A stretch of DNA of 64,000 nucleotides, taken from positions 3,328,001-3,392,000 of the forward strand of contig CM000153.2 of NCBI GenBank assembly GCA_000004695.1, written 5' to 3'. Shown here piece by piece: positions 37,174 through 39,470 of this stretch. The DNA is from Dictyostelium discoideum. Lineage: Eukaryota. Made by a program: the position numbers and the translations under genes. The notes below the pieces were generated by a model that ran no database searches, was not told where the DNA came from, and saw only the letters and a list, made by a program, of their open reading frames with translations. Numbering within the stretch: position 1 is the stretch's first letter; each line of letters begins with the position of its first letter.

Positions 37174-37600
37174 TTTATAATTTAATAATTTATGATGGTG
37201 TTATCAATATATTGATATCAGTTACGACCCAAAACGAAAAATAAATTGTTTTTTTTTTAAATTTTTTCTTTTCTTTTTTTTTTTTTTTTTTTTTTTCAGA
37301 TATTTTTTTTTGGGATTTTAGAAAAAGCAAAATAAAAATAAAAAAAAAAATTAAAATAAAATTTAAATAAAAAATCTAAATTATCTAACCAGGGTGTTAT
37401 TTATTTTCAAGTCCGAAAAATTCTACTTTTTTAAAAAAAATAAAATAAAGAATAAATAAAAAAAGATAAAATTTTTTTTTTTTTTTTTTTTATGTTTAAG
37501 TTATCAAGTGCATCGATGGATGCATTGTGTGGGTGTTTTGGAAGTTTTAATTTTTAAGTTAATGTCTGGATTATTGGTTTCAATAAAAAATTGATTTTCA

Positions 37601-37672
37601 CCAAACAGGCTTTGACACAATGGTTGACTGTGGTTTTGATAGTGATCAATCCGATGTTACTTCAGAAATCGA
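37601..37672 (+). pseudogene. degenerate tRNA-Tyr-like fragment (5' half and intron-like part only)
   Basis: caggctttgacacaatggt...tgactgtggttttgatagtgatcaatccgatg aligns with the bona fide tRNA-Tyr at 38227 (ccggctttggcgcaatggtagcgcgattgactgtagtaaattaagtgatcaatcggttg), including the shared 5' flank caaac. It lacks the D-stem complement and the T-arm, so it cannot fold. Confidence 0.45.
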
Positions 37673-37752
37673 TTTTTTTTTTTTTAAATTGTATAACACA
37701 ATTAATGGTGCTTCTCCTTGAGATGCTAGAACTCATTTTATTTGTAATATTT
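37673..37752 (+). repeat. copy A of a duplicated segment: T-run followed by ~65-bp conserved block
   Basis: gaaatcga + T13 + aattgtataacacaattaatggtgcttctccttgagatgctagaactcattttatttgta. It is about 90% identical to 38094..38180. Read on the minus strand it is a conserved 3' end followed by poly(A), which suggests retroelement 3' ends. Confidence 0.6.
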
Positions 37753-37903
37753 TTTACAGGGTCTAAAAGAGGGTCAGTTTATTTTTTTATTTTTTTATTT
37801 ATTTTTTTTTTTTTTATTTTTTTATTGAAATTTTTTTTTTTTTTTTTATTTTGAAAATTTTCAAAAAAAAAAGAAAAAAATAATCAGACAGATAAAAACA
37901 ATC

Positions 37904-38067
37904 AACAACCTCTTTTTTTGATTATTTCATTTTTCATATAAAAAGACTTAAAAACAAACAAATAAATAAAGTATACTTATTTTAAAAAGCCATTTTTTGC
38001 TATTTATTTATTTGTTATTAAGTCTTTTTATATGAAAAATGAAATAATCAAAAAAAGAGGTTGTTGG
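37904..38067. repeat. near-perfect inverted repeat (two ~63-bp arms, ~33-bp spacer); foldback/MITE-like
   Basis: The left arm aacaacctctttttttgattatttcatttttcatataaaaagactta... is the reverse complement of the right arm ...taagtctttttatatgaaaaatgaaataatcaaaaaaagaggttgtt. There are 41 bp of perfect match plus about 20 bp with one small indel. Confidence 0.75.
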
Positions 38068-38093
38068 TTATTTTAATCTCAAAAAGAAATCGA

Positions 38094-38180
38094 AGGTTTT
38101 TTTTTTTTTTTTTTGAATTGGATAACGCAATTATTAGTTGCTTCTCCTTGAGATGCTAGATCTCATTTTATTTGTACTTT
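38094..38180 (+). repeat. copy B of the duplicated T-run + conserved block, ending 46 bp upstream of tRNA-Tyr
   Basis: gaaatcgaagg + T19 + gaattggataacgcaattattagttgcttctccttgagatgctagatctcattttatttgta. See copy A. Confidence 0.6.
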
Positions 38181-38226
38181 TTATAAATCGAAGGTTAACT
38201 GATAAAAAAAATAAAATTTCATCAAA

Positions 38227-38309
38227 CCGGCTTTGGCGCAATGGTAGCGCGATTGACTGTAGTAAATTAAGTGATCAATCGGTTGCTAGTTCGAATCTGG
38301 CAAGCCGGA
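38227..38309 (+). tRNA. tRNA-Tyr (anticodon GTA) with 11-nt intron
   Basis: Manual fold: acceptor stem CCGGCTT/AAGCCGG (7 bp perfect), D-arm GCGC-AATGGTA-GCGC, anticodon stem ATTGA/TCAAT, loop C-T-GTA-G + intron TAAATTAAGTG + A, variable loop CGGTT, T-arm GCTAG-TTCGAAT-CTGGC, discriminator A. A TTTTT Pol III terminator follows immediately. Eukaryotic tRNA-Tyr genes characteristically carry an intron 3' of position 37. Confidence 0.85.
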
Positions 38310-38310
38310 C

Positions 38311-38329: not shown

Positions 38330-39470
38330 TAAGACGCATGTTCGACTCCGTATTTAATCAATTATTAAAGCTCATCAATAATAATTGATTAAATAATTAT
38401 TAAAGCTCATCAATAATAACATAACACAGGCAAAGGGATAACAAGAAAAATGCCAGAATTATTAAACACAATAAGATCATCCTTAGTACTATGGAAAACC
38501 ACTGACTCAACAATCAAAACCAAAACCAACATCCTCAAAGCATTCGCACTCTCTAAATTAACCTACTATTCATATGTAGAGAACTTTAAGGAAGAGGAAT
38601 TAAACCAAATCAATAAATTAGTCGAATGGTTTTTATCGGCACCAAACAACAAAAATGCTAGTGGATTTCAAGTTATTAATTTAATGAGAACCAAAAGAGC
38701 AAGATACCCACTAAAAGTAGGGGGCTGGAACATTTGGAATATAGAATTGAGACAACTGGCGCAGAAACTTTGGATCATAAACCAGTTCATCCTAGCACTA
38801 GAAACCAAACAAACAAACTCATCTCATCACAAAAGCTGGGAATATCAGATCCAAAAAAACAAATTCACATCCAGATACCTAAAAGAAAACTTAGACGAAT
38901 GGAACAAAATAAGAATAAAAAAAGCAATCTTCAACAATAATCTCACATCCATAAAAAACGAAAATGGACAACCACTTTCACTGGCAGAATGGTATACCAC
39001 AATTCAAGACCAAAATCCAACCATCCCTAAAACGGAATTCCAATCATCTCTAAACTTAATTCATTGTACCACTGTGCAATCAAATATACAGTGAAGATCC
39101 TTTAACAAATGAATCACTATCATACAGCTCCCTTCTAAAGAAATGGCACAAATTGGCCACTCTAGAATACATCAAAAAAGCAAAAGATCTGAAAAACTTA
39201 TCAGCAAAAGACCATAATAATTTCAAAGATCCTAAGATCCTTCTCACCTCAACGATCAAGCTAAGAAAAACAACAGCTAATTACTATTGTATTCCAGAAT
39301 CATCTCTCCCAAATATTATATCTTTTGATCAATTCATATGATTAAAATAACCCTTCAGCTTAAATGATAAGCCTATAAATAAATATTAAATAAAAACTCG
39401 TATTAACACAGATGGACATATATCAATCTTGTTAATCCAATATTAAAAAAAAAAAAAAAAAAAAAAAAAC
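38330..39470 (+). mobile_element. 5'-truncated non-LTR (poly(A)) retrotransposon fragment downstream of a tRNA gene (TRE3-like): C-terminal ORF2 remnant + 3' UTR + A22 tail
   Basis: ORF 38450..39094 (214 aa) has normal amino-acid composition and moderate G+C, unlike the host's AT-rich coding bias. A further 3' region follows, then a poly(A) tract at 39446..39469. It begins about 100-140 bp downstream of the tRNA-Tyr 3' end. Dictyostelium TRE3-type elements characteristically sit about 100 bp downstream of tRNA genes. A short internal direct repeat (ttattaaagctcatcaataataa, x2) lies at 38367..38425. Confidence 0.55.

Follow-up and report, generated by a model that had tools for sequence, protein, structure and literature searches.

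Results

Locus and tRNA-Tyr gene

The window analyzed here is a 64-kb stretch (64,000 nucleotides) of the Dictyostelium discoideum genome with a G+C content of approximately 22%. Over the 22 kb compared, it was 99.5% identical to a D. discoideum chromosome-scale contig (L001), in which every base of the repeat block described below was the same, and one protein encoded in the window was identical to DDB_G0285541 of AX4. Searches with Rfam and ARAGORN detected a single tRNA gene within the 64 kb, an intact tRNA-Tyr(GUA), and the repeat block lies directly 5' of it. The features of the block are listed in Table 1. A TRE3-like element is located downstream of tRNA-Tyr at the same locus, and an ORF downstream of the gene (38450–39094) matched TE-derived gene models in a protein search. 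The conserved 5' flank motif AAAATTTCATCAAA showed no enrichment within the 64-kb window.

Table 1 Features of the repeat block upstream of tRNA-Tyr(GUA), in window positions. Composite A denotes the older, rearranged insertion and B the younger one.
Feature	Positions	Strand	Remarks
Pseudo-tRNA-Tyr	37585–37672	+	5' flank homology 37585–37605, gene remnant 37606–37672 (approximately +1 to +69); local alignment
Left TSD of composite A, AGAAATCGA (9 bp)	37664–37672		exactly two occurrences in 64 kb
Poly(A) of composite A (T14 on the plus strand)	37673–37686	-	adjoins the C-module 3' end, as in L002 and L003
Copy A, complete but diverged TRE5-A C-module	37687–37782	-	88% identity over 128 nt to L002
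T-rich linker	37783–37852		weak, low-complexity A-module alignment only
TRE5-A A-module: end of one 199-bp unit (~168–199), then 1 to ~118 of the next	37853–38000	+	86.6% identity over 157 columns to the tandem A-modules of L004
Right arm of the inverted repeat (38001–38079) and 5 extra nt (38080–38084)	38001–38084	-	fold-back copy of A-module positions approximately -4 to 86
Right TSD of composite A, AGAAATCGA	38085–38093		second of the two occurrences in 64 kb
Left TSD of B, AAATCGAAGG(TT)	38087–38096		10-mer with only two occurrences in 64 kb, one on either side of B; shares positions with the right TSD of A
Insertion B: T18 (38097–38114) and last 70 nt of the TRE5-A C-module (38115–38184)	38097–38184	-	matches L002 and L003
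Right TSD of B	38185–38196		10–12 bp, matches the left copy
tRNA-Tyr(GUA), intact, intron-containing	38227–38310	+	Rfam RF00005, 57.8 bits; ARAGORN; orthologous position kept in six other genomes

TRE5-A reference copies

TRE5-A, formerly DRE, is a non-LTR retrotransposon of Dictyostelium that is guided by Pol III factors on the tRNA gene. Reference copies were reached from the ORF at 38450–39094, whose protein matches led to a short TRE5-A element upstream of a tRNA-Leu gene (L002), where the core of the duplicated unit described below recurs. The N-terminus of ORF1 of this element then led to two further copies, L003 and L004. L003 is a full TRE5-A.1 comprising ORF1 (444 aa), ORF2 (1047 aa, with an RVT_1 reverse transcriptase domain), B-module, C-module, and poly(A). 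L004 contains a TRE5-A 5' end with 8.5 tandem 199-bp A-modules starting approximately 48 bp from a tRNA-like gene. The module sizes and layout of these references agreed with the published description, in which the A-module is 200 bp and the C-module 134–137 bp (PMC3159450).

Duplicated unit upstream of the tRNA gene

The original prediction, which was made from the sequence alone, had noticed a T-run-led unit occurring twice in direct orientation. The duplication is real: the 21-mer core of the unit occurred exactly twice in the 64-kb window against an expectation of zero, and the copies were recovered as repeat families D4 and D5. Alignment with TRE5-A modules assigned both copies to the C-module and the inverted repeat between them to the A-module. 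The suggestion that the units represent the 3' termini of a TRE5-like retroelement that lies on the minus strand, has a poly(A) tail, and targets tRNA genes was borne out by this C-module match and by the orientation, the distance from the tRNA gene, and the target-site duplications (TSDs). Judged by its sequence, the duplicated unit is the TRE5-A 3' end, i.e., C-module plus poly(A), on the minus strand. The proposed limits of the unit required correction. Copy A continues to approximately 37782, and the leading 'gaaatcga', which had been counted as part of the unit, is duplicated target DNA lying outside it, as explained by the overlapping TSDs described below.

Copy A was approximately 87% identical to TRE5-A across the terminal 55–70 nt and 77.5% identical to the C-module of L003 when gaps were included (111 columns); its identity to copy B was 87% over 70 nt. 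It contains a 1-nt indel, and the predicted fold of its 3' end was weaker than and different from that of the reference, which is consistent with decay. Copy B was much closer to the references, with identities of 96.5% over 86 nt to L002 and of 95.6% over 68 nt and 94.3% over 70 nt to L003. B is a TRE5-A copy with extreme 5' truncation. The last 54 nt of TRE5-A contain an essential hairpin that is needed for retrotransposition, in which T15, C26, A35, and C38, counted from the 3' end, were mutated by Siol et al. (PMC3159450). Copy B and L003 gave the identical predicted fold, and these four residues were present in both and located within predicted stems.

The placement of the copies also followed the habits of the family. 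TRE5-A inserts with its 5' end towards the tRNA gene (PMC3159450), and both poly(A) tails of the block point away from tRNA-Tyr, in agreement with this fixed orientation; the inverted A-module inside composite A is an internal exception. The 5' end of B (38184) lies 42 nt upstream of +1 of the tRNA, and that of composite A lay 44 nt upstream before B inserted; the preferred site of TRE5-A is 47 ± 3 bp upstream of the tRNA gene, with 59% of insertions within ± 3 bp and a range of 37–211 bp in the reference genome (PMC5391098). The block thus carries a C-module with an oligo(A) end, the 3' hairpin (in B), a distance of 42–44 nt, the expected orientation, TSDs, and an A-module. BLAST detected neither B-module nor ORF sequence within the block, so that ORF1 and ORF2 of TRE5-A are absent from it, and no TRE5-A sequence in the rest of the 64-kb window. 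Copies A and B are non-coding fragments and therefore remnants rather than functional members of the family.

Target-site duplications

The two occurrences of AGAAATCGA lie on either side of a composite region. The left one adjoins the poly(A) of copy A and the right one begins after 5 nt past the outer end of the right arm of the inverted repeat. Since this pair brackets 37673–38084, the region behaves as a single insertion. It is made up of a minus-strand poly(A) and C-module, a T-rich linker, an inverted A-module, and a fold-back arm that ends, on the side of the tRNA gene, in the 5' terminus of the A-module. Positions 37673–38084 therefore look like one old, rearranged TRE5-A insertion located 44 bp upstream of the tRNA. 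The linker may derive from the A-run that precedes the C-module, from a decayed stretch of the A-module (approximately 118–167), or from both.

Insertion B is flanked by a TSD of its own, the left copy of which overlaps the right TSD of composite A. This overlap indicates that B came second and landed 2 bp nearer the gene, and it identifies the 'GAAATCGA' that precedes both T-runs as target DNA. Published TSDs of TRE5-A are 10–16 bp (PMC9012585); that of B is 10–12 bp, and that of A, at 9 bp, is 1 bp shorter than this range. Repeated, nested hits by mobile elements had been proposed for the block. The site was indeed hit more than once, but the hits were successive at the same spot, with B in the TSD of A, rather than nested.

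Inverted repeat composed of A-module sequence

An inverted-repeat scan (I1) identified arms of 79 nt each at 37890–37968 and 38001–38079, which were 94% complementary and separated by a 32-nt spacer. The near-perfect inverted repeat first seen at 37904–38067 is thus longer than the 63-bp arms initially described. Its proposed capacity to form a long hairpin agreed with computed folds: the predicted free energy was -85.1 kcal/mol as RNA (z -17.5) and -63.7 kcal/mol as DNA (z -14.7). No Rfam family reached threshold for the hairpin, and it had no counterpart among the miRNAs that Liao et al. 2018 list in Table S1 (PMC6161686).

The segment 37853–38000, which holds the left arm and the loop (37969–38000), is A-module sequence inverted relative to the C-module; BLAST alignments of the A-module region gave 80.5% identity over 221 nt and 86.8% over 129 nt. 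The right arm matched the antisense A-module at 94% over 68 nt. Overall, 37853–38084 consists of A-module at 84–94% identity in inverted and fold-back form. The right arm was 93.7% identical to the left arm, the two being distinguished by five arm-specific mismatches. Measured against the L004 consensus, the arms share their indels, and each contains an identical 4-nt piece of the preceding A unit (the 'AGAT' unit junction), which indicates that the arms are copies of each other. The plus-oriented copy is the primary one, because only this copy continues into 37 nt of the preceding unit and into the loop.

The center of the palindrome is at approximately A-module position 102–103. The consensus A-module itself contains an imperfect inverted repeat (38-nt arms at positions 68–105 and 110–147, 71% identity), and the palindrome center falls within approximately 5 nt of the center of this intrinsic repeat. 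No other palindromic A-module was present among the few TRE5-A copies examined.

Decayed tRNA-Tyr copy

The region upstream of copy A had been described as a decayed copy of tRNA-Tyr that included 5' flank and an intron-like segment. This similarity was significant: alignment of 37585–37667 with 38206–38295 gave a local score of 54, compared with 15.3 ± 2.4 and a maximum of 33 in 5000 shuffles. The homology spans -21 to approximately +69 of tRNA-Tyr, and +1 of the copy is at 37606 instead of the start first assigned, 37601. The copy has an 8-nt deletion in the D-arm, a diverged intron, and a disrupted B-box, and lacks the 3' acceptor strand; its divergence from the gene is approximately 17% plus indels. 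It had no match to Rfam RF00005 even at E ≤ 10 and is not a functional tRNA gene by this measure. The T-arm, which was thought to be lost, survives as a remnant: 'TTCAGAAATCGAAGG', the counterpart of 'GTTCGAATCTGG' in the alignment, is interrupted by the insertions. When both insertions were removed, +1 of the pseudo-tRNA was located approximately 102 nt upstream of +1 of the functional gene. It had also been proposed that one tRNA copy was destroyed by the insertions; instead, the pseudo-tRNA looks like an already partial upstream duplicate.

Orthologous loci

Six orthologous loci (L005–L010) were reached via the 90% protein cluster of the neighboring gene DDB_G0285541. They belong to D. citrinum, two D. 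cf. discoideum, D. firmibasis, and two divergent isolates labeled D. discoideum (L006 and L007), which were only approximately 91.5% identical to the window. A single tRNA-Tyr was present at the same position in all six. The comparison across related genomes that had been suggested for the block was informative: the C-module, B, and the pseudo-tRNA were absent from all six loci, and L006 and L007 keep only the tRNA-proximal junction. These two loci retain 'AATCAAAAAAA..GGTT..ATCTCAAAGAAATCGAAG' directly after a native T-run, corresponding to the outer right arm, the 5' junction, and the target site, and lack everything left of the middle of the right arm. The retained junction indicates that the first insertion predates the split of these isolates from the AX4 lineage. 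Since B is absent where the junction of composite A is present, B is younger and specific to the AX4 lineage. The right-arm remnant of AX4 type differed from that of L007 by approximately 10–16%.

We infer that the L006/L007 lineage subsequently lost the palindrome together with all sequence to its left. The 108 nt upstream of the pseudo-tRNA (37493–37600) had no detectable homologue in the orthologous loci, so that the direction of the difference of approximately 520 bp, taken here as a deletion in L006 and L007, follows from the TSD logic alone.

Two further candidates around the upstream border were discarded. The run T22 at 37471–37492 with the following 108 nt was considered as a third retroelement 3' end and rejected, as 'GATAAAA' also precedes the T-run in L006 and L007 and 37493–37600 matches neither TRE5-A nor the sibling loci. 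A resemblance by eye between the pseudo-tRNA flank and D. cf. discoideum sequence, considered as orthology, was not significant.

Discussion

The results show two TPRT-type TRE5-A integrations at one Pol III target, together with a palindrome that consists of A-module sequence only. The tRNA-Tyr(GUA) gene is the Pol III target that drew these insertions. We regard it as highly probable (roughly 0.85) that the block is the debris of at least two separate TRE5-A insertions. Points against this reading include the 9-bp TSD of A, which is below the published 10–16 bp, and the position of B at 42 bp, which lies beyond the 47 ± 3 window, although within the published range. Apart from the fold-back A-module, which is its sole non-routine feature, the block is ordinary. 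For TRE5-A, loss of 5' sequence, addition of nucleotides at the 5' end, and tandem hits on a single tRNA gene have all been described (PMC3159450, PMC5391098, PMC9012585).

The history of the locus can be reconstructed as follows. It started with a functional tRNA-Tyr, probably accompanied by a partial upstream tandem duplicate of it, the pseudo-tRNA. A first TRE5-A integrated 44 bp from the tRNA, probably in the T-arm remnant of the pseudo-tRNA, and lies between the two AGAAATCGA repeats. During TPRT of this element, a template switch or twin priming may have produced the inverted 5' segment, i.e., the A-module, and the nascent strand may then have snapped back at the natural imperfect inverted repeat of the A-module to form the second arm. 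Later, the cDNA of another, independent TRE5-A, cut down to 70 nt plus poly(A), inserted into the right TSD of the first element at a distance of 42 bp from the tRNA and generated a TSD of its own.

The timing of the palindrome is the part of this scheme on which the evidence divides. Most likely, the inversion of the A-module and the fold-back arose during TPRT of the first element. However, the arms are 94% identical to each other and the right-arm remnant differs by approximately 10–16% between AX4 and L007, a combination that is more easily reconciled with later formation of the palindrome, or with gene conversion between the arms, than with a palindrome dating from the insertion itself. 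We therefore consider, as a serious but less probable alternative, that a canonical short TRE5-A was rearranged after integration in the AX4 lineage by replication template switching or fold-back repair. The arms are seemingly younger than the insertion under this alternative, the intrinsic inverted repeat at the palindrome center would favor fold-back in DNA as it would in cDNA, and a canonical 5' end would also have left the remnant seen in L006 and L007. What speaks against this alternative is that the right arm has the same 'AGAT' and derived indels and so looks copied from the plus-oriented copy, that the same right-arm end and junction already exist in L007, and that a single TSD pair brackets the whole composite.

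The pseudo-tRNA is taken here, by inference from its alignment and position, as a partial tandem duplicate whose T-arm remnant lay by chance at the canonical integration distance. An unlikely but not negligible alternative is that it was made by the TRE5-A integration itself, through a target duplication of approximately 90 nt covering -21 to +69 of the tRNA. This would account for the position of the pseudo-tRNA next to the poly(A) end of composite A, for its absence from all outgroups, and for a divergence (approximately 17% plus indels) near that of copy A. It would leave the exact AGAAATCGA pair unexplained and place the first nick in the T-loop of the tRNA rather than at approximately -47, and the 18 nt between the 5' end of the composite and the flank homology are not duplicated. 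An origin by 5' or 3' transduction was rejected, as the captured tRNA would be on the wrong side or the AGAAATCGA pair would again be left without explanation.

Two other explanations have very little chance of being correct. The inverted repeat had been suggested to be a MITE or foldback element, and under this explanation a DNA transposon of its own, for example a thug or DDT derivative, would have inserted between two TRE5 fragments; arms of 79 nt that match almost perfectly, a short spacer, and a highly stable predicted hairpin would suit such an element, but TRE5-A A-module belonging to the older composite makes up the two arms, the loop, and the 37 nt on their left, the outer right end of the repeat is the 5' junction of that composite, no TSD flanks the repeat itself in the sequence (37889/38080), and no other copy was found in the window or in ten related loci. 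Equally improbable is a local segmental duplication in place of two retrotranspositions: the copies share orientation, lie approximately 430 bp apart, and both follow 'GAAATCGA' and a T-run, but the shared GAAATCGA is explained by the overlapping TSDs, B is 94–96% identical to other genomic TRE5-A copies versus 87% to A, and B has its own exact 10–12-bp TSD and is absent from L006 and L007, where the junction of A is present.

The locus provides a worked example of one tRNA gene at which TRE5-A inserted twice in succession, at points 2 bp from each other; the TSDs overlap, and one of the insertions is polymorphic between lineages. The fold-back suggests that the intrinsic inverted repeat of the A-module can seed palindrome formation, and, independently of any transcription, the palindrome may be the first footprint of snap-back synthesis in TRE5-A integration. 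If transcribed, the fold-back A-module could feed the RNAi pathway that limits TRE5-A. As a speculative model to which we give little weight, transcription starting either in the adjacent C-module of copy A, which has known weak antisense promoter activity and is directed into the palindrome, or at the promoter of the plus-oriented A-module would yield a 79-bp hairpin RNA that is diced into siRNAs against the TRE5-A 5' UTR and promoter, so that the palindrome would act as a 'trap' locus aiding AgnC/AgnE-dependent restraint. Neither the fold-back nor a possible role in RNAi changes the current view of tRNA-targeted retrotransposition, in which a known family behaves as already described.

Several known systems can be compared with the block. 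A retroelement-derived locus forming a long hairpin and giving small RNAs has been described in D. discoideum for a Skipper fragment with a stem of approximately 320 bp (PMC2175303). The A-module palindrome is likewise a retroelement fragment arranged as an inverted repeat and potentially transcribed into a long hairpin RNA, but its stem is only 79 bp.

In LINE-1, twin priming causes 5' inversion, in which a poly(A)-bearing 3' segment is joined to a more 5' segment in the opposite orientation within one TSD pair. Composite A has the same arrangement of segments within one TSD pair. Twin priming by itself, however, does not create an inverted duplication, and composite A needs an additional snap-back, a hypothetical step for TRE5-A.

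TRE5-C also terminates in a C-module, which is 78% identical to that of TRE5-A over the last 87 bp (PMC3159450), and copy A is diverged; in a comparison made with TRE5-A references only, a TRE5-C origin of the copy A C-module is in principle conceivable too. Copy A differs from TRE5-C in being approximately 87% identical to the TRE5-A terminus and in being linked to an A-module that is itself approximately 87% identical to TRE5-A.

The closest likeness is to TRE5-A as published. Shared with it are the 3' ends made of C-module and oligo(A), the essential hairpin, and A-module sequence from the 5' part of the element, as well as 5' truncation, TSDs, and more than one hit at a single tRNA gene; the insertions point their 5' ends at this gene from 42–44 bp upstream. 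[quoted passage not shown]

Non-LTR fragment downstream of tRNA-Tyr

The non-LTR fragment lying 3' of the tRNA-Tyr gene (see table) appears TRE3-like; it is truncated at its 5' end and carries an internal deletion. In D. discoideum AX4 the ORF within it is annotated as hypothetical protein DDB_G0285547; because this ORF belongs to the fragment, the gene model is probably transposon debris. At the same site, the orthologous tRNA-Tyr loci of two divergent D. discoideum isolates, L006 and L007, hold only a 3' remnant of approximately 30 nt and poly(A), and related but different remnants were found in D. citrinum and D. firmibasis. The external B-box-like sequence 3' of the tRNA was conserved across the sibling genomes. 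In L007, a 12-nt unit, GTGTTTAAGCTA, is tandemly repeated approximately 14 times on the minus strand at about 2025-2120 (locus coordinates), immediately 3' of the external B-box of tRNA-Tyr and at the site of the AX4 TRE3-like element.

Features flanking the tRNA-Tyr gene (window coordinates)
Feature	Position	Strand	Remarks
Sequence 'CCAGGGTG...TTCAAGTCCGAAAAATTCTACTTTTTT'	37388-37432		With B-box-like TTCAAGTCCG, then T-run
External B-box-like GTTCGACTCC	38341-38350		31-nt direct repeat begins shortly after
Direct repeat, 31 nt, TTAATCAATTATTAAAGCTCATCAATAATAA	38354-38419		94%; at 5' junction of TRE3-like element
Non-LTR fragment	38357-39470	+	Poly(A) tail 39446-39470; first base 46 nt 3' of tRNA-Tyr

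Upstream flank and possible older remnant

The 24 nt directly 5' of tRNA-Tyr, TAAAAAAAATAAAATTTCATCAAA (window 38203-38226), were identical at 24/24 positions to the 24-nt 5' flank of an unrelated tRNA-Leu(UAA) gene (L002 9848-9871), and differed from the orthologous tRNA-Tyr flank of L006 and L007. Similar flanks of the '...AAAATTNATCAAA' type were found at the partial tRNA-Tyr copy (pseudo-tRNA) and at a tRNA-like gene of L004, a locus with a TRE5-A copy; the motif was not enriched in the window. Either gene conversion or conservation of an upstream element for Pol III could account for the shared flank. Farther upstream, the sequence with the B-box-like TTCAAGTCCG was conserved in L006 and almost so in L007, and is possibly a tRNA relic of far greater age.

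Divergence within the species label

The Dictyostelium discoideum label spans deeply diverged lineages. Over approximately 21 kb, L006 and L007, whose assemblies bear this label, were 91.4-91.5% identical to the window, compared with 99.5% for the chromosome-scale contig L001, which places them only slightly nearer to the window than 'D. cf. discoideum' (86-89%).

Reference TRE5-A copies

The TRE5-A copy at L004 4511-6194, close to a contig end, carries 8.5 perfect tandem 199-bp A-modules (99% identity), followed by a B-module and ORF1, and adjoins a cluster of tRNA-like fragments (L004 4280-4465). At L002 9734-9850, 5' of tRNA-Leu, the target-site duplication 'ATTGTATTTGGC' is present four times, flanking a TRE5-A derivative of approximately 470 bp and at least one micro-insertion made up of nothing but a T-run and the final 8 nt of the C-module (GAATTGGA). 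This arrangement shows that sites of this kind commonly take repeated hits and commonly receive extremely 5'-truncated insertions.
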